Of a DNA stretch of 64,000 nucleotides, positions 57,854 to 64,000 are shown piece by piece. Each line of letters begins with the position of its first letter. Positions within the stretch are counted from its first letter, which is position 1. This DNA is from Rhodanobacter sp. (GTDB lineage Bacteria; Pseudomonadota; Gammaproteobacteria; Xanthomonadales; Rhodanobacteraceae). A program made the position numbers and the translations under genes. The notes below the pieces were generated by a model. That model made no database searches. It was not told the origin of the DNA and was given only the letters and a program-made list of their open reading frames with translations. The stretch lies in NCBI GenBank assembly GCA_041663105.1, contig JBAZRB010000021.1, forward strand, positions 13,798 through 77,797, given 5' to 3'.

Positions 57854-59004
57854 TGGGCCTCGACGCGCGACACTACTTCCGCCTGCCCTCCCCGTTCGCG
57901 ATGAAGCGCGGCGGCGAACTGCATGGCGCGCACATCGCCTACGAAACCTGGGGCGCACTGAACATGGTGCGCGACAACGCCGTGTTGGTGCTCACCGGGC
58001 TGTCGCCCAGCGCACACATGGCATCCTGCAAGGACGATCCCAGCCCCGGTTGGTGGGAGGCGATGGTCGGCCCCGGCAAGGCGATCGACACCTCACGCTG
58101 GTTCGTGATCTGCGTGAACTCGCTGGGCAGCGACAAGGGCTCGACCTGTCCCGCCTCGATCGACCCCGGCACCGGCAAACCCTATCGCCTGAGCTTCCCC
58201 GAGCTGGCACTCGAAGACGTCGCCAACGCGGCCCATGCCGTGGTCGGCGATCTGGGCATCACCCGACTGGCCTGCCTGATCGGCTGCTCGATGGGCGGCA
58301 TGAGTGCACTGGCCTACATGCTGCTGCACCCTGGCGGCGTGCGCGCGCACATCAGCGTGGACACCGCGCCACAAGCACAACCGTTCGCCATCGCCATCCG
58401 CTCGCTGCAGCGCGAGGCGATCCGGTTGGACCCTCAATTCGCCGACGGCAACTACGATATCCATGCAGAGGCTGGCGGCACCTACCCCGACATGGGCATG
58501 AGCATCGCGCGCAAGCTGGGCGTGATCACCTATCGCTCGGCGATGGAATGGAATGGCCGGTTCGCACGCATCCGGCTCGACCCCGAGCAACGCGAGGACG
58601 AACCATTTGGCCGCGAGTTCCAGGTCGAGTCCTATCTCGAAGGCCACGCCCAGCGCTTCGTGCGCAATTTCGACCCCAACAGCTACCTCTACCTCTCGCG
58701 CGCCAGCGACTGGTTCGACATCGCCGAATACGGCCATGGCAGCGTGCTGGAAGGGCTCAAGCGCATCTGCATCGAACAGGCGATGGTGATTGGCGTCAGC
58801 ACTGATATCCTGTTTCCATTGCAGCAGCAGGAACAGATCGCCGAAGGCCTCGAAGCCGCCGGCGCCAAGGTGGAATTCGTGGCGCTGGACTCGCCCCAGG
58901 GTCACGATGCCTTCCTGGTCGACATCGACAATTACAGCCGCGCGATTGGCGGCTTCCTGAAGCGCCTGACTGACGTCGGCATGAATACCGCGCAGCCAGG
59001 CTGA
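57853..59004 (+). CDS. MetX-family alpha/beta-hydrolase acyltransferase (homoserine O-acetyltransferase-like; possibly serine O-acyltransferase)
   Basis: Nucleophile elbow GCSMGGM and a C-terminal GHDAFL His. TGATG overlap with the ccmI stop. Confidence 0.85.
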   Translation: MGLDARHYFRLPSPFAMKRGGELHGAHIAYETWGALNMVRDNAVLVLTGLSPSAHMASCKDDPSPGWWEAMVGPGKAIDTSRWFVICVNSLGSDKGSTCPASIDPGTGKPYRLSFPELALEDVANAAHAVVGDLGITRLACLIGCSMGGMSALAYMLLHPGGVRAHISVDTAPQAQPFAIAIRSLQREAIRLDPQFADGNYDIHAEAGGTYPDMGMSIARKLGVITYRSAMEWNGRFARIRLDPEQREDEPFGREFQVESYLEGHAQRFVRNFDPNSYLYLSRASDWFDIAEYGHGSVLEGLKRICIEQAMVIGVSTDILFPLQQQEQIAEGLEAAGAKVEFVALDSPQGHDAFLVDIDNYSRAIGGFLKRLTDVGMNTAQPG

Positions 59005-59032
59005 CTACCCTCACGTACCACCAGAGAACCAC

Positions 59033-59614
59033 ATGCTTACCCTGGATTTCCCCGGCAGCCAAATCCTGATTGATGCGATCGACGACGCCGTGGCCAAGCC
59101 CACCACCCACGCGCTCACTGACAGCCTGCGCAACAGCCTGTGCCAGATGATTCGCGAGCAGTCGGTCACCCTGCCCGAGTGTGTGTTCAAAGCCAACCCC
59201 GACCGCTACGCCCGCCGCGAGCTGTATCGCAGCGAAGAGCACGGCTACTGCGTGGTCGCGATGACCTGGGGCCCGGGCCAGGGCACACCGATCCACGATC
59301 ACGACGGCATGTGGTGTGTCGAAGGCGTGTGGAATGGCTCACTCGACATCGTGCAATACCAGCTACTGGAACATCAGGACCAGCGCTACTGCTTCCAGCC
59401 GATCGGCTCGATCCAGGCCGGTGCGGGCTCAGCCGGCAGCCTGATCCCGCCGCACGAGTACCACAGCATCCGCAACCCCAGCGACAACGGGGTAACCGTA
59501 AGTCTGCACATCTATTCCGGCGCCATGCTGCGTTGTGCCGTGTTCCAGCCGCTGCCGGAAGATCGCTGGTATGACCGGAATATTCGTCAATTGGGTCTCG
59601 ACCGCGTGCACTGA
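59033..59614 (+). CDS. Cysteine dioxygenase type I-like cupin
   Basis: Cupin metal ligands IHDHDG ... HEYHSIRN. Confidence 0.7.
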   Translation: MLTLDFPGSQILIDAIDDAVAKPTTHALTDSLRNSLCQMIREQSVTLPECVFKANPDRYARRELYRSEEHGYCVVAMTWGPGQGTPIHDHDGMWCVEGVWNGSLDIVQYQLLEHQDQRYCFQPIGSIQAGAGSAGSLIPPHEYHSIRNPSDNGVTVSLHIYSGAMLRCAVFQPLPEDRWYDRNIRQLGLDRVH

Positions 59615-59626
59615 ACCCGGCATAAT
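59598..59626 (+). promoter_or_regulatory. Candidate sigma70 promoter of the tRNA locus
   Basis: TCGACC (-35-like), 17-nt spacer, CATAAT (-10), ending 14 nt before the first tRNA nucleotide. Confidence 0.35.
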
Positions 59627-59640
59627 GCAGCGGCTCACAT

Positions 59641-59678
59641 GCCGGTGTGGCGGAATGGTAGACGCGGCGGACTCAAAA
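59641..59678 (+). pseudogene. Orphan 5' half of an intronless tRNA-Leu(CAA) gene, truncated at the 3' edge of the anticodon loop
   Basis: GCCGGTG-TG-GCGG-AATGGTAG-ACGC-G-GCGGA-CTCAAAA gives acceptor, D-arm, anticodon stem 5' strand and a full 7-nt loop. No complementary TCCGC, T-arm or acceptor 3' strand follows. Confidence 0.7.
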
Positions 59679-59865
59679 ACCAGTGCTTCTACCTCTGGTT
59701 AACTCAGGTTCATCGTCCGAAAGCCGCATCAGGCAAAGATTTCAAGGGAAAATTGGCTTCTGATTGGAAAGTACACCTTTCGAGCCAGGAGCCAACTAGG
59801 AGCCAGTGCGGCGCAGACTGGCGCCAAGCAGGTGGTAGCAGGTAGTTGAAGTAAGGTTGCGTCAC

Positions 59866-60194
59866 GCCCGAGTGGTGGAATTGGTAGACGCAGAGGACTC
59901 AGACCAAATTTGAGCCCTCTTGGAGAAATCCTTGAGGTGAAGCCCGTCAAACTCGGTGAAGGCCCTGGACGCAAGTCCGAGCTAATGCCGAGCCAAGCCC
60001 AGGCCGAAAGGTGTGGGAAGGTGTAGAGAGCAGACGGCGGGCACCTACGGCCAAGCGGTAACACGCAGTGCTATGGTGAAGGCGTGCTCCAGACCACGAA
60101 CGCCCTGCCTCGTGCAGGACGGCGGCGAAAGCCGAAGTGGTAAGAAAATCCTCCGCCGCAAGGCTTGTCGGTTCGAGTCCGACCTCGGGCACCA
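59866..60194 (+). tRNA. tRNA-Leu(CAA) interrupted by a group I intron in the anticodon loop
   Basis: Exon 1 (59866-59900) is GCCCGAG-TG-GTGG-AATTGGTAG-ACGC-A-GAGGA-CTC. Exon 2 (60145-60194) is AAAA-TCCTC-C-GCC-GCAA-GGC-TT-GTCGG-TTCGAGT-CCGAC-CTCGGGC-A-CCA. All four stems and the long Leu variable arm pair correctly after intron removal. Confidence 0.85.
59901..60144 (+). ncRNA. Group I intron (IC3-like, cyanobacterial tRNA-Leu/Azoarcus type), 244 nt, no ORF
   Basis: P1 forms between CUCAGA and AUUUGAG. Core blocks GCCGAGCCAAGC (59987-59998), GAAGGUGUAGAGA (60017-60029), AGACGG (60032-60037) and GCUAUGG (60070-60076) match the Azoarcus/Anabaena tRNA introns from memory. A GCGAAAGC tetraloop hairpin lies near the 3' end. 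Terminal G at 60144. Confidence 0.85.
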
Positions 60195-60200
60195 ATTCAA

Positions 60201-60236
60201 AAGCCGCCCCTGCTGTACAGAGGCGGCTTTTTTTTA
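60201..60236. terminator. Bidirectional rho-independent terminator after the tRNA
   Basis: Stem gccgcc/ggcggc with a 13-nt loop, followed by an 8-nt T-run. An A-run on the other side serves the convergent WYL gene. Confidence 0.75.
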
Positions 60237-60283
60237 TTTCCTAATCCTACGGCAGCAACTCGGATATCCACGCTGAAATCGAT

Positions 60284-61153
60284 CTACGAGCCGGGCATCA
60301 ACCACCTTGAGAGCTTTTCAACATCATCCACGCATAGCTCAAAGTCCGGAGGCTGTTGCTTGGCGGGATCTGTAGACGCGCGAAGGTCGTGAATGACGTA
60401 AGGCAGCAATGCTGCCCTGACTGTTTCTATGCGTGCCGCTGAACCCCCAAGATATTCGGCACGAACCATCTGCTTTTGTTCGAGCGTCAGCTTAGGATGC
60501 GGAACTACCCGCAGAGCCACTTGTGTGGCCCAGGCAATATCCTGATCCCGCTGGGCATCACCAGGTGACGCGAGGCCGGTCACGGTCAATTCGCTCAGTC
60601 GCGTCAGCGCAAGATCCTGGAATCCTCCAGCTTCGGAGACATAGGCCCGCACATGCCACCGCCGCCCTGCTTCGACCAGCGAATGCGGATAGAAGGTCTT
60701 GGGCTTAGGCATCGGATTACGCATTGAGCAATGCTTCGCCGTCACACCGACCCCTTCTCGGATCGCCCGATGCAGGATCGCAAAGGCGCGATGGTGCACG
60801 GCTCCGAAATCAAGTTGCGTTCGCACGACGACGGCCTGCTCTAATTGCCGCTCGGTCAATGTGTATGCCAAGTACTCCTCGATCGTGCCAGCGGTCAGAA
60901 GCGGCTTGAAATCAGCATCAGCCACCCAGCGACGCTGCGCGGTCGAGTACGTCAAGCCGACCGAGTTCATGCCGACATACTGGGCCAGCAAGCGGCTGAC
61001 TGTGGTGAAGTGCAGATCTAAGAGCCCCCGAACACGCTCATTGCCCGCAGCGCCCTCCCAGAGAAGAAGCGACTCGATGGCACGCAGGGTTTCCGGGCTT
61101 TTAGCGGGAGCAGGCATGGCCAGAGTTGATGGTTGCAAGCCGGAGCGAGTCAT
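60284..61153 (-). CDS. wHTH-WYL-WCX transcriptional regulator (BrxR/CapW-like)
   Basis: 289 aa. N-terminal HTH (LLDLHFTTVSRLLAQY), central WYL-type segment (FYPHSLVEAGRRWHVRAYVSEAGGFQDLALTRL), C-terminal extension. Divergent from the SMC-type cluster. Confidence 0.78.
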   Translation of the reverse strand: MTRSGLQPSTLAMPAPAKSPETLRAIESLLLWEGAAGNERVRGLLDLHFTTVSRLLAQYVGMNSVGLTYSTAQRRWVADADFKPLLTAGTIEEYLAYTLTERQLEQAVVVRTQLDFGAVHHRAFAILHRAIREGVGVTAKHCSMRNPMPKPKTFYPHSLVEAGRRWHVRAYVSEAGGFQDLALTRLSELTVTGLASPGDAQRDQDIAWATQVALRVVPHPKLTLEQKQMVRAEYLGGSAARIETVRAALLPYVIHDLRASTDPAKQQPPDFELCVDDVEKLSRWLMPGS

Positions 61154-61184
61154 AGCAATATCACCAATATAGCGATATTGCTAT
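61152..61184. promoter_or_regulatory. Perfect 11-bp inverted repeat (candidate WYL-regulator operator) in the divergent promoter region
   Basis: ATAGCAATATC-n11-GATATTGCTAT overlaps the regulator start codon and lies 26 nt upstream of the jetA-like ATG. Extra ATAGC/TAGCGA half-sites are nearby. Confidence 0.6.
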
Positions 61185-61209
61185 GATAGCGAAAGCACTA
61201 TAACTGTCC

Positions 61210-62637
61210 ATGTTCCTCACCCAGACCCCGCCCTTGTTCGATGTGCTCCCCAGGGATCTGTTCCGACCGCTGGCTTCACTCAATCGAGTGCACTACTGGC
61301 GATTGCTTTTCTTGCTCTACGGCAAATTCTTCGGCTCGGAAGCGGACCTGCCACCGGCGGCAGGTTGGAATCGCCGGGATCTGTTGATCGCCATCGAACA
61401 GTTGCTCGAAGACGACGATCCTTGGGAACTGGAAGATGGCGAATCACCCAACTCCCCTATCAACATTCGGGCCCACACTTACCTCAGACGTCTGATCGAA
61501 GCAGGCTGGCTACTCGAAGAGCGTGTTGGATTGGCTGTCGTTGTCTCCATGCCTACCGTGGTGAACCGGCTCATGGAGACCTTGCAGGTTTTCATCGAGT
61601 TCTCACCGCCTCCAGTGGGCGCGAAGATGCGATCGATCGAAAGCGCCTTACAAAGGGTGCTGACGTCGTCACAGCCGGGCGACGAACTGGATGAGGCGGC
61701 CTCGCAGGCCCGTCTTTTGGTAGGAAGCATGGCTGCTATGGGATTGCGTGTGCGAGAACTGATGCGCGGACTCTCGGCCGATGTCACCACCGCACAGGCG
61801 CTACACCAGATTTTCGACGAATACATCGGCAAGACCTATATGGCGGACTATGCGCAGCTCGCCGGTGCCGATCATCCTCTCGCCCGCAAGTCGGCCGTGC
61901 TCGCACTGGTCAGCGAGATCGCCCTGAGCGACCAGCGCGATCGCTTGCTGGCCTGGTACGCCGAACACCGCACCGGAGGTAACCGTGATCAGGCCGATGA
62001 CCGGCTCGAACGCACGCTCCGTCGCATCAAGGATCTCAGCCGGCTCCAGGATTTCCTAGATCGCCTGGAAGACGATCTCAGACGTATGAATCGACGCATG
62101 CTTGCATTGATCGACTATCGCCTGCATGCACCAAGCCATCTCGAAATCCGCATCAAGCGAGCCATTGCCGGCATGAAGGACAGTGACGGGCTGGAGGTGT
62201 CCCCACCAGTTGGTCCCGGCCAGATGCTTTCTGGAGAACTGTTGTTCAAGCCGCGCAAACGGAGGTCCCCCATTCCGCTGGCGGCCGACGCGCAGCGGCA
62301 GATGTCGCCCGAACAGGAAGCCCGCATGCGCCTTCGCGCCCAAGCTCGCGATGCAAGACGTGTGCAATCCAAGGACATCTACGCTTACCTGCACAGGACG
62401 ATGAGCACGAATCTGCAGGTGCTGGCATCGGATCTCCCAATCCAGTCCATCAAGGATTTCCGGGTCGTCCAGACTCTGTCCAGCATGGCCCTCGCCGCGA
62501 CGGCGCTCTCCGTCCGAGGCAAAGGCAACGGGATGATCGGCAAGCTCCCCAAGTACGCCTTCCGCATCGCCAGTGGCAGGTACGTCGACAACGGGTATTT
62601 GGACATGCCCGACTTCTACATCACAAAAGTGGGATGA
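61210..62637 (+). CDS. jetA: JetA/MksF-like (kleisin-type) first subunit of a Wadjet-like SMC system
   Basis: 475 aa. Assigned from size, position and operon order (A-B-SMC), not from a motif I can verify. Confidence 0.55.
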   Translation: MFLTQTPPLFDVLPRDLFRPLASLNRVHYWRLLFLLYGKFFGSEADLPPAAGWNRRDLLIAIEQLLEDDDPWELEDGESPNSPINIRAHTYLRRLIEAGWLLEERVGLAVVVSMPTVVNRLMETLQVFIEFSPPPVGAKMRSIESALQRVLTSSQPGDELDEAASQARLLVGSMAAMGLRVRELMRGLSADVTTAQALHQIFDEYIGKTYMADYAQLAGADHPLARKSAVLALVSEIALSDQRDRLLAWYAEHRTGGNRDQADDRLERTLRRIKDLSRLQDFLDRLEDDLRRMNRRMLALIDYRLHAPSHLEIRIKRAIAGMKDSDGLEVSPPVGPGQMLSGELLFKPRKRRSPIPLAADAQRQMSPEQEARMRLRAQARDARRVQSKDIYAYLHRTMSTNLQVLASDLPIQSIKDFRVVQTLSSMALAATALSVRGKGNGMIGKLPKYAFRIASGRYVDNGYLDMPDFYITKVG

Positions 62638-62638
62638 C

Positions 62639-63283
62639 ATGGCCTCGATTTGGGAACGCCTCGCCGAAAGCAGTCGCATGTTCACTATCGACGACTTTGA
62701 ACGCGCCGCCTATCGAGTGGTGACAGCGCAAGTGTTGTCGGTGAACGAGCAAGCCACCCGCAAGGACTACTACTTGGTCGCGGAGCATCTGCGCGAGTTC
62801 AAGCAGGTACTCGAACCACTTGGCATCAGTCTTCGCCACAACACTCAATTCCGGTACATCGTCGCCCAGACACGACATGTCCTGAACCAGAACAAGGCCT
62901 CCAAGACCGTCACCCTGATGGTACTGGTTCTAGCCGATATCTATCACCGCGTGAGGTTCAACGGCCAGGAGGGCGACTTCGGCGAGGCCTACGTCGAACT
63001 GCCGGACCTGCAGGAGGCCTATCAGGGAATGACGGGCTACGAGTTCCCCAAGACGGGCGAGCTCCGCGAGCTGATCGCCGATCTCGAGCGCTGGGGGGTT
63101 GCACGCAAGCACGAAAGTGATGTCGACCACACACAGCCCTTCAGCGTCATGATCCACCCGGCGATCTCGGACATCGTGACCAAGGAGTGGCTCGGACAGC
63201 TCGAAGGCCTGCGCAAGCAGACGGGCACTGACGAGCTAGAAGGGGAAGCCGAACCGGAGGAGTCCGACGATGTATCTGCTTGA
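62639..63283 (+). CDS. jetB: JetB/MksE-like small subunit with acidic C-terminal tail
   Basis: 214 aa, starts 2 nt after the jetA-like stop, tail DELEGEAEPEESDD. Pattern resembles DUF4194-type proteins from memory. Confidence 0.55.
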   Translation: MASIWERLAESSRMFTIDDFERAAYRVVTAQVLSVNEQATRKDYYLVAEHLREFKQVLEPLGISLRHNTQFRYIVAQTRHVLNQNKASKTVTLMVLVLADIYHRVRFNGQEGDFGEAYVELPDLQEAYQGMTGYEFPKTGELRELIADLERWGVARKHESDVDHTQPFSVMIHPAISDIVTKEWLGQLEGLRKQTGTDELEGEAEPEESDDVSA

Positions 63284-64000
63284 AAAGTTCCACCTCGTCC
63301 AGTTCTATCTGTTCTCGGCCACCACGCTGCACTTCGGCAGCAGCTCGGCCATCGTCGCACCGAACGGCTCGGGTAAGTCCGCGGTATTGGATGCCATGCA
63401 GATCGTGCTCCACGGTGGCGACCAGAAGGCAATCGACCTCAACGCCCAGTCCGGCGGGCAGAAAGGGGGACGCTCGATCCGCGAGTATCTGCTGGGGTAC
63501 TACCGCGACGACGAGAACGTCCGCGACCATGCCACCTGCTATCTAACGATGGTTTTTCGCGACAGTACCGGCAAGCATCCGCTCGTATCGGTAGGGCTCT
63601 GTCTGGGCGCGACTATCAATGAGCCCAAGCATCGCGTCCATGGCATGTACATCCTGCCCGGAGTGGACCTGAAACTCGAAGACCATACCCAGACCGACAA
63701 GGGACAACTCATGCCCTTGGCGTGGCCTGACTTCAAGGACTGGGCTAGCGAACGTACGATCGCGGCCGGTGGGAAACCAGACTTCCCCAGGGACAGAGTC
63801 GCATCGGACTTCGTCCAGCGCATGTTGTTCCAACTGCGTGCCGACCGGGCGCGCAGCATCGACAACGTCGCCTTCTCCAAGGCACTGAAGAATGCCCTGA
63901 ACCTGAAGGACGTCCACGATGCCAGCGCCTTCGTCCGCGATCGCATCATCGAAGAGCGCCCTATCAACATCAGCGAGTTCCGACACCAGTTGGAAACCTT
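63270..64000 (+). CDS. jetC: SMC/JetC(MksB)-like ATPase, N-terminal 243 aa only (continues off-window)
   Basis: Hand-translated open frame from the ATG at 63270, with a 14-nt overlap with the jetB-like gene: MYLLEKFHLVQFYLFSATTLHFGSSSAIVAPNGSGKSAVLDAMQIVL... has an SMC-head Walker A. No stop before nt 64000, so it is absent from the ORF track. Confidence 0.75.
   Translation, partial: MYLLEKFHLVQFYLFSATTLHFGSSSAIVAPNGSGKSAVLDAMQIVLHGGDQKAIDLNAQSGGQKGGRSIREYLLGYYRDDENVRDHATCYLTMVFRDSTGKHPLVSVGLCLGATINEPKHRVHGMYILPGVDLKLEDHTQTDKGQLMPLAWPDFKDWASERTIAAGGKPDFPRDRVASDFVQRMLFQLRADRARSIDNVAFSKALKNALNLKDVHDASAFVRDRIIEERPINISEFRHQLET

Follow-up and report, generated by a model that had tools for sequence, protein, structure and literature searches.

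Intron-split tRNA genes of bacteria were surveyed by Williams (bioRxiv 2020, 10.1101/2020.01.27.920355), who distinguished 21 types in 80,413 bacterial genomes. One of these, named 'Leu.3Cg', comprised 72 introns and is marked by C-G instead of the near-universal U.G as the pair at the 5' splice site; its splicing was said to need testing, and the equivalent mutation inactivates the Tetrahymena intron (10.1101/2020.01.27.920355). Here we describe a member of this class in a stretch of 64,000 nucleotides from Rhodanobacter sp. (assembly GCA_041663105.1, contig JBAZRB010000021.1, positions 13,798 to 77,797 of the forward strand), hereafter referred to as the window. The tRNA-Leu(CAA) gene at 59866-60194 fits the class in every respect, namely a tRNA-Leu, anticodon-loop position 3, C at position -1, a 3'-terminal G and a proteobacterial host, and structurally the window copy is no different from it. 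We report the anatomy of this gene, the conserved fold of its intron, the junction at which the DNA carrying it was inserted, and the association of its relatives with element ends. We are fairly confident that a mobile element disrupted the native tRNA-Leu(CAA) gene and brought in the split gene, most likely as its replacement. The class itself had been described before; since the preprint gives counts only, and the covariation, repeated origin, orphan gene halves and conjugative elements found here are unmentioned there, the covariation evidence and the link to conjugative elements appear to be new relative to the published work that we found.

The classical tRNA-Leu(UAA) intron (Leu.3Ug), present in cyanobacteria, plastids and proteobacterial relatives, occupies the same site and has an IC3-type core. 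Its proteobacterial homologues align with the window intron end to end, at 65-70% identity for those of pCTX-M3-type plasmids and Mycetohabitans and at up to 87% for metagenomic copies of the integrative and conjugative element (ICE) type. In these alignments, which were made with proteobacterial members only, the classical introns have U34, a U.G pair and the anticodon UAA, whereas the window has C34, C-G and CAA. The IC3 intron of Azoarcus tRNA-Ile(CAU) shares the compact architecture, the GAAA loops in L2 and L9 and the CCUAx...UAUGG receptor-like motifs, but it resides in another tRNA, is inserted after nt 36, has a natural U.G pair and carries GACUA/UAGUC in P7 where the window has GAGCA/UGCUC. 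The window intron contains the blocks GUCAAAYUCGG, GCCGAGCCAAGC and GAAGGUGUAGAGA, which we take to be those of an IC3 core; this is consistent with the Rfam alignment.

Integrative elements that target tRNA genes are the second group of described systems with which this locus can be compared. Such elements reportedly rebuild the gene that they enter with an element-borne 3' portion. The tRNA target and a crossover in the anticodon loop, which is a known sublocation, are shared by the element described here. In contrast, the junction that can be seen is not rebuilt, since non-tRNA DNA follows directly on the native 5' half; unlike the usual elements of this kind, this one instead carries a complete, separate tRNA gene with the same anticodon that is split by an intron. 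A close match is the Tn4371 family. For two of its members, ICE_KKS102_Tn4677 and ICEbphKF708, the attachment site (att) GATTTTAAG and "the tRNA-Leu gene" as main target have been published, and the family's host range of Comamonadaceae, Burkholderiaceae, Alcaligenaceae and Xanthomonadales-type Gammaproteobacteria matches that of the unit found here.

The split gene and the fold of its intron

When introns were allowed, ARAGORN called a tRNA-Leu(CAA) gene at 59866-60194 with a 244-nt intron at gene position 36, directly after C34 (59901-60144), and this was the sole tRNA in the 64-kb window. The gene reads GCCCGAGTGGTGGAATTGGTAGACGCAGAGGACTC, followed by the 244 nt of the intron and by AAAATCCTCCGCCGCAAGGCTTGTCGGTTCGAGTCCGACCTCGGGCACCA, with CTC/a...g/AAAA across the two junctions. 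Its 5' exon (59866-59900; all features of the gene are on the plus strand) holds tRNA nt 1-34 and ends in C32-U33-C34, while the 3' exon (60145-60194) supplies A35-A36, the rest of the anticodon arm, the long variable arm, the T arm, the 3' strand of the acceptor stem, A73 and CCA. ARAGORN draws the spliced product of 85 nt, with its CAA anticodon and long variable arm, as a perfect type II cloverleaf that has A73 and an encoded CCA. An earlier note on this DNA, made from the sequence alone, had already recognised a group I intron whose removal leaves a perfect cloverleaf, and had correctly placed it between tRNA positions 34 and 35, which is the site of the classical tRNA-Leu(UAA) intron. The gene is followed by a hairpin and T run of an intrinsic terminator (60203-60235), near the end of which, at ~60232, homology to the relatives stops. 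No homing-endonuclease open reading frame (ORF) was found in the intron, which is too short for one. Three mechanical ORFs of 111, 82 and 87 aa on both strands of 59729-60276 overlap the intron and the tRNA and are GC-rich artefacts.

Standard searches return blanks at this locus: ARAGORN without introns found zero tRNAs there, and Rfam at its gathering thresholds gave zero matches. The Rfam group I model (Intron_gpI, RF00028) did match the intron with E = 1e-4, but its 27.4 bits fall short of the gathering score of 50 and P7-P9 stayed unaligned. Two undoubted tRNA-Leu(UAA) homologues are sub-threshold as well, with 36.8 and 39.0 bits, and the RF00028 seed holds no bacterial sequence (Williams, 10.1101/2020.01.27.920355). 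The low score is therefore a property of the model and not of the window, and the blanks from the ARAGORN default and the Rfam gathering thresholds are sensitivity limits and no proof of absence. A pattern reaching from the D loop across the junction to P4 had one match in the window, compared with 0.00 in shuffled sequence.

To collect relatives, contigs from one genome per species were scanned with a pattern for C32-U33-C34 plus the 5' third of the intron, which gave at least 119 matches. A group I model was placed by hand on the window and then checked on a MAFFT alignment of 110 unique relatives. All group I elements were found in the window: P1 (59895-59902/59910-59917, with the splice-site pair C59900-G59912), P2 (59916-59924/59929-59937, closed by a GAAA loop), P3 (59942-59948/60036-60042, part of the P3-P7 pseudoknot), P4 (59952-59958/59986-59992), P5 (59961-59970/59975-59983), P6 (59998-60005/60010-60017), P7 (60026-60032/60085-60090), P8 (60043-60057/60064-60077), P9 (60093-60097/60137-60141), P9a (60101-60108/60114-60121), P9b (60123-60126/60131-60134, again with a GAAA loop), P10 and the terminal G60144. 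P7 contains the guanosine-binding pair G60028-C60089 (G163-C224 in gene numbering) and the bulged A60027 (A162), both invariant in 110/110 relatives, and the terminal G is likewise G in all 110. The P1 helix and conserved core that the earlier note had described are thus in place and are backed by covariation.

Among the 110 relatives, canonical pairing amounted to 90% in P2, 99.4% in P3, 95.5% in P4, 95.6% in P5, 86% in P6, 100% in P7, 99.5% in P8, 87% in P9, 91% in P9a and 100% in P9b. When the 3' partner was moved by one or two columns as a control, these values dropped to 0-65% (9-65% for the P3-P8 core); over all helices tested, the control range was 0-67%. Two-sided compensatory changes, counted as alignment cells, were observed for 33 of 54 pairs across P2, P3, P5, P7, P8, P9, P9a and P9b; by helix this was 8/9 in P2, 5/8 in P5, 7/7 in P9a, 3/6 in P7, 3/7 in P3 and 3/4 in P9b. 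The joining segments J3/4, J4/5, J6/7 and J8/7 are, like the terminal G, invariant or nearly so. In P1, the exon sequence GGACUC pairs with the guide GAGCCC and the helix is extended inside the intron by A36-U46 and G37.U45; canonical pairing holds in 106/110 relatives at G30-C52 and likewise at G31-C51. Both P10 pairs, A60145-U59911 (A280-U46) and A60146-U59910 (A281-U45), are present in 110/110.

The exons covary with each other across the intron. This applies to five of the seven acceptor-stem pairs and to the anticodon-stem pair 29-287, which is GC in 45 relatives, CG in 41, UA in 13 and AU in 11, and hence canonical in 100%; selection on the spliced product is therefore indicated. The ribozyme core and both tRNA stems are visibly under purifying selection, and the conserved fold argues for a working intron.

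The broken native gene and the element end

Upstream of the split gene, the native tRNA-Leu(CAA) gene survives as an orphan 5' half (59641-59678, plus strand), extending from the acceptor stem to the anticodon loop CTCAAAA and reading GCCGGTGTGGCGGAATGGTAGACGCGGCGGACTCAAAA, after which unrelated DNA follows. A contig of a sister strain (Logan contig L004) is 99.4% identical to the window over 58380-59678 and then diverges into an intact, intron-less tRNA-Leu(CAA) gene. Since the sister strain is intact and homology stops at 59678, an insertion took place in the native anticodon loop, with the inserted DNA starting at 59679 and the split gene lying 187 bp inside it. The native 3' half (TCCGCTTGTGG...CACCGGTACCA) was not found in the window, where CTCAAAA[AT] has one occurrence in 64 kb, and no tRNA 3' halves were found downstream in any 8-kb locus of the relatives. 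The suggestions of the earlier note that the intron-bearing gene was acquired horizontally and is the sole intact tRNA-Leu(CAA) at the locus are therefore well founded: the split gene sits within inserted DNA, the native gene is cut to its 5' half, and the window holds no other tRNA. The note judged the intron, its position, its horizontal origin and the native loss correctly; it overlooked the C-G pair, the orphan half at 59641-59678, the conjugative context and the prior description. In Logan run SRR18595301 (contigs L005 and L006), the sequence is identical to the window on both sides and the assembly breaks between 59665 and 60163, a break to be expected where two similar tRNA 5' halves lie close to each other.

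The native gene has a sigma-70-like promoter, TCGACC-17-CATAAT (59598-59626, plus strand), 15 bp before its start, and this is the sole promoter-like match in 59560-60320. As no other match is present, the native promoter may now drive read-through from the orphan half into the split gene.

The spacer between the orphan half and the split gene (59679-59865, 187 bp, plus strand) constitutes the end of the element. It was recognised by its homology to the spacers of relatives, being 72-79% identical to the spacer after orphan halves in 37 other genomes, and it probably represents the recombination-site arm of a conjugative element. The spacer opens with the inverted repeat ACCAG (59679-59683)/CTGGT (59695-59699), which is maintained by compensating changes: AACCAG...CTGGTT in the window (59678-59700) versus AAATAGG...CCTATTT in most relatives. 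Repeated GTAG/GGTAG motifs are located just 5' of the split gene; these motifs and the inverted repeat could possibly be binding sites for a recombinase or excisionase.

Among the matches listed, 38 of the 111 loci with enough upstream sequence have a host-type orphan 5' half ending in CTCAAAA that is joined to the element end ATAGGGACTTCT..., and the split gene follows ~187-196 bp after this junction. The orphan halves are of the type of their hosts (GCCGGTG... in Rhodanobacteraceae, GCCCGGG... in Betaproteobacteria), whereas the exons of the split gene are alike across Beta- and Gammaproteobacteria. Homology between the loci ends right after the terminator. From ~260 bp downstream, ~20 of the listed loci, including that of R. 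thiooxydans, carry convergent trbI, trbG, trbF and trbL genes, whose products match Pfam TrbI, CagX, VirB8 and TrbL with E-values of 1e-51 to 1e-68. By its sequence context, the unit in these relatives is the trbI-proximal right end of a Tn4371-family conjugative element. A trb operon beside an att site, as expected of such a right end, was thus found at ~20 relative loci and not in the window. The window lineage also differs from the described members of the family in using the CTCAAAA of tRNA-Leu(CAA). Three loci (L211, L229 and L133) have 2-4 kb of cargo between the tRNA and trbI, which therefore identifies this interval as a cargo slot.

At two loci the element end abuts DNA that is not a tRNA gene: in L174 it adjoins the 3' end of a SixA-like ORF at the site GGGAACTCAAAA, and in L158 it adjoins ...GTATGACTCAAAA. 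The element therefore recognises a core of ~9-15 nt and not a whole tRNA, and from the 38 junctions and these two non-tRNA sites we infer the att core GACTCAAAA. The insertion site in L174 (1-480) resembles a tRNA anticodon arm (GCAGGGAACTCAAAA vs GCAGGGGACTCAAAA); this contig is labelled as a Mycobacterium metagenome-assembled genome (MAG) yet has proteobacterial-type trb genes and is probably mis-binned. Published direct repeats in the Tn4371 family are 8-9 bp long, which argues that the split native tRNA would not be rebuilt at the other end.

A parallel lineage uses the UAA gene. The reverse complement of the published att GATTTTAAG is CTTAAAATC, that is, the anticodon loop of tRNA-Leu(UAA), and CTTAAAATC is also the UAA-type junction in our metagenome set. 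In two loci of that set (L263 and L327), an orphan tRNA-Leu(UAA) 5' half ending in GACTTAAAATC is followed by TGTTTTGTCAAG..., by an intron-split tRNA-Leu(UAA) 162-164 bp after the junction and by trbI/G/F(/L) ~270 bp downstream, with Trb proteins 84-87% identical to those of the CAA type. A third locus (L283) agrees with these in orphan half and spacing, but there the TrbI match begins only ~900 bp downstream, near the contig end. In both sister lineages, CAA and UAA, the carried anticodon is thus the anticodon of the gene that was cut. Because ~190 bp lie between the att core and the anticodon carried by the element, two distinct sequences, their match is best explained by selection for replacing the broken gene. 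We found no mention of a tRNA or an intron on Tn4371-family elements in the literature, as far as this limited literature could be searched.

Two further arrangements were observed around the unit. In L130, L236, L179 and L237, a P4-type tyrosine integrase (Arm-DNA-bind_3, Phage_int_M, Phage_integrase) lies 176-218 bp past the split gene, which suggests the 3' end of this gene as an attachment site for other islands. In L209, a partly degenerate second tRNA-Leu 5' half abuts the split gene 8 nt upstream (...GACTCAAAAGGCCTCGT...), with similar cases in L151 and L187; this extra half resembles either a partial duplication that arose locally or a scar left by an earlier event.

Probable splicing with a C-G pair and competing explanations

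Group I splicing is taken to have a single near-universal determinant, the U.G wobble at the 5' splice site. In the window this pair is C59900-G59912, a Watson-Crick pair in which the exon end ...CUC meets the guide GAG. Despite this pair, the intron probably splices in vivo and yields a functional tRNA-Leu(CAA), as the conservation of its fold suggests. In the predicted pathway, folding of the precursor would pair GGACUC at the end of the 5' exon with the guide GAGCCC; a free guanosine seated at the G-C pair of P7 would attack after C59900, the terminal G60144 would take the same P7 pocket with the 3' exon aligned by P10 (AA/UU), and exon ligation would give the 85-nt tRNA. A 5' splice site shifted to after U33, which would place U at -1, was ruled out, because with the 3' exon AAAA it would produce a 6-nt anticodon loop lacking C34.

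To trace the state at position -1, the C34 introns were set against 71 relatives with U34 that came from metagenomes and plasmids. Homologues with U34 (UAA anticodon, U.G pair) at the same site occur on Mycetohabitans megaplasmids and pCTX-M3-type plasmids. At 85-87% identity, the nearest U34 sequences have the P7 variant GAGCA/UGCUC of the window and its conserved A x C mismatch at position -4 of P1; both features were considered as compensation for C at -1 and rejected, because these closest U34 relatives have them. Four alphaproteobacterial C34 introns carry another P7 variant, GACUG/CAGUC. By parsimony, the state at -1 changed three times on a neighbour-joining tree and two to seven times, never less than two, in 200 bootstraps of trees built by the unweighted pair group method with arithmetic mean, and the column of position 34 is the only alignment column that tracks the U/C state. 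Therefore a change from U to C or from C to U was repeatedly tolerated without a second-site change. Both splice-site types are found within Mycetohabitans, a genus of fungal endosymbionts: an unannotated split tRNA-Leu(UAA) is present on the M. endofungorum megaplasmid (L001 2998-3341), and two Mycetohabitans sp. (L155 and L170) carry intron-split tRNA-Leu(CAA).

Several points weigh against our reading. A splicing assay has been reported for no Leu.3Cg intron, and in later literature we found no paper that uses the term or tests its splicing; the equivalent change kills the Tetrahymena intron (Williams, 10.1101/2020.01.27.920355). The covariation counts are cells of a MAFFT alignment and not independent evolutionary events, and the P1 pairs C-G, U-A and C-G at the splice site were preset by the search pattern and lend no independent support. 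The sub-threshold Rfam alignment covers P1-P6/P3' only and skips P7-P9. The spacer has no convincing promoter, with zero consensus matches and only unconvincing hand-picked candidates. Neither a trb gene nor an integrase was found in 60241-64000 of the window or in the 12.4-kb continuation on L006. Finally, an intact tRNA-Leu(CAA) might possibly be rebuilt at the far junction, which lies beyond the window, or be present elsewhere in the genome.

It is also conceivable, if unlikely, that splicing is not autonomous, with the C-G pair slowing the first step so that a host or element protein, a chaperone or in vivo conditions are needed. The G.U pair contributes to P1 docking and to the first step in model introns, and this explanation would accommodate the change from U to C without any accompanying second-site RNA change. 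Nonetheless, no conserved protein gene lies beside the unit, as the downstream DNA varies between trb genes, integrases and defence genes, and 41 copies in Steroidobacteraceae and related MAGs stand alone without any element context.

Slightly less probable still is that the gene is a dead relic, in which the change from U34 to C ended splicing and UUG is decoded by tRNA-Leu(UAA) or by another copy of tRNA-Leu(CAA). The fold is intact in at least 113 species-level genomes, and compensatory changes occurred within each of the two C34 clusters, at 22/69 and 20/69 helix pairs, so that the fold stayed selected with C at -1. Both tRNA stems covary across the intron and are 100% canonical, while CCA is kept in 111 of the 114 called genes among the matches listed. 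Furthermore, the intron is far better conserved across hosts than the adjacent spacer (91-98% versus 72-79% identity), and the C state arose at least twice and persisted. An intron-less tRNA-Leu(CAA) was present within 8 kb in only two of the 119 matches listed (L147 647-731 and L156 4615-4699); in these two loci it converges on the split gene at a distance of ~3 kb. What speaks for a relic is the inactivating effect of C at -1 in the Tetrahymena intron, as cited by Williams, and the lowered activity in the Azoarcus IC3 ribozyme, the structurally closest model, in which a splice-site triplet changed from CAU to CAC reduced activity without abolishing it and was tolerated better than three other mutations; the other tRNA-Leu genes of this genome, moreover, lie outside the view of the window.

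That the split gene is the resident tRNA-Leu(CAA), with the upstream half a local partial duplication and nothing acquired, is improbable. Other Rhodanobacteraceae do show the same arrangement after metX and the cysteine-dioxygenase-like gene, and in a few loci such as L209 a degenerate 5' half abuts the split gene; yet the sister strain, with 99.4% flank identity, has an intact intron-less gene that continues from exactly the same 5' half. This half is moreover of host type (GCCGGTG...), whereas the split-gene exons are uniform across Beta- and Gammaproteobacteria, the same spacer and split gene occur beside trb genes and at the non-tRNA site in L174, and the GC content falls from 64.4% upstream to 59% after the unit. 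An unrelated 244-bp insertion, such as a small repeat element or an assembly artefact, would fit the ARAGORN-default and Rfam-gathering blanks but can practically be dismissed in view of the Rfam match at E = 1e-4, the P1-P10 covariation and homologues in hundreds of independent assemblies.

Distribution, neighbouring genes and implications

The earlier note had thought this intron-bearing tRNA to be rare. This did not hold, as at least 113 species-level loci (113 of the 119 matches listed) were called as tRNA-Leu(CAA) genes whose intron measures 204-252 nt and ends in G, and Williams had already listed 72 Leu.3Cg introns. The betaproteobacterial hosts include Bordetella, Achromobacter, Alcaligenes, Pusillimonas, Castellaniella, Comamonas, Acidovorax, Hydrogenophaga, Polaromonas, Burkholderia, Paraburkholderia, Caballeronia, Cupriavidus and Mycetohabitans; gammaproteobacterial hosts are Rhodanobacter, Dyella, Dokdonella, Denitratimonas and many Steroidobacteraceae MAGs, and a few are alphaproteobacterial (Stellaceae, Roseiarcus). 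The introns form two large clusters, one of 61 mixed Beta- and Gammaproteobacteria that includes the window and one of 41 Steroidobacteraceae-type MAGs, the latter being the stand-alone copies mentioned above. The closest relative among the matches listed is that of Rhodanobacter thiooxydans LCS2 (98.8% identity). With Rhodanobacter and Dyella as closest relatives, the gammaproteobacterial host type named in the earlier note was correct.

Upstream of the native tRNA gene are the chromosomal genes ccmF/G/H, a gene for a TPR protein, metX and the cysteine-dioxygenase-like gene. Downstream, the first cargo gene after the split tRNA encodes a WYL/BrxR-type regulator (60284-61153, minus strand; Pfam WYL, PADLOC WYL, and WHD_BrxR plus BrxR_CTD on the identical gene in L006). 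It is divergent from a type I Wadjet operon (61210-64000, plus strand), which PADLOC resolved into JetA (61210-62637), JetB (62639-63283) and JetC (from 63270 past the window end). The scores were 458 bits for JetA1, 202 for JetB1, 1001 for JetC1 and 379 for JetD1, so that JetA-D are found together in one operon, as type I Wadjet demands. In L006, JetC is followed by JetD, a 427-aa protein without family match, a PifA-like KAP NTPase (PADLOC PifA, 383 bits) and further ORFs. The resulting defence island spans 60284-64000 of the window and 1-12475 of L006. It may be a larger example of the cargo slot seen in relatives, or else the window element may have decayed.

Related introns were also observed outside these loci. 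A complete yet unannotated tRNA-Leu(UAA) gene with a ~220-nt group I intron is present in pCTX-M3 (L002 2987-3292; NC_004464.2, ~61815-62120), in L003 and in ~1,250 other plasmid records. It lies ~100 bp from a resistance module consisting of an AAA-ATPase gene (tmrB-like) and aac(3)-IId, which is flanked by ISCfr1 and IS26 and is found on clinical plasmids of E. coli, Klebsiella, Salmonella and Acinetobacter. Widespread resistance plasmids thus carry an unannotated intron-split tRNA-Leu(UAA), which may serve as a pointer to the chromosomal source of the resistance fragment. The generic IC3 core motif GAAGGTGYAGAGASNNGACGG occurs in at least 120 IMG/VR viral contigs (L007-L126), IC3-type introns probably being abundant in phage-like contigs; as a search pattern on viral contigs, the generic core was discarded as too unspecific.

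Taken as a mechanism, the mobile element entered the resident tRNA-Leu(CAA) gene at CTCAAAA in the anticodon loop and left an orphan 5' half behind, while the split gene that it brought along would replace the destroyed tRNA gene. We lean towards the view that the carried gene indeed compensates for the split native gene. A more speculative idea, which we hold to be rather doubtful, is that the intron confers target-site immunity by interrupting the element's own core in the carried copy (CTC/intron/AAAA). An uninterrupted copy would hold the target GGACTCAAAATCC, and the intron would hide the carried gene from the integrase and from further copies of the element; splicing of the RNA would restore a working tRNA while the DNA copy would be no target. 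On this view, the C-G pair would be a tolerated side effect of the switch from UAA to CAA as target.

These findings have practical consequences as well. Default tRNA finders and Rfam thresholds overlook such genes, so that genomes can seem to lack tRNA-Leu(CAA). A large natural family with C-G at the splice site makes the importance of the wobble in compact IC3 introns testable with a 330-nt transcript. For the elements themselves, our results suggest an integration strategy of "break it and bring a spare", in which the intron possibly hides the spare from the element's own integrase.

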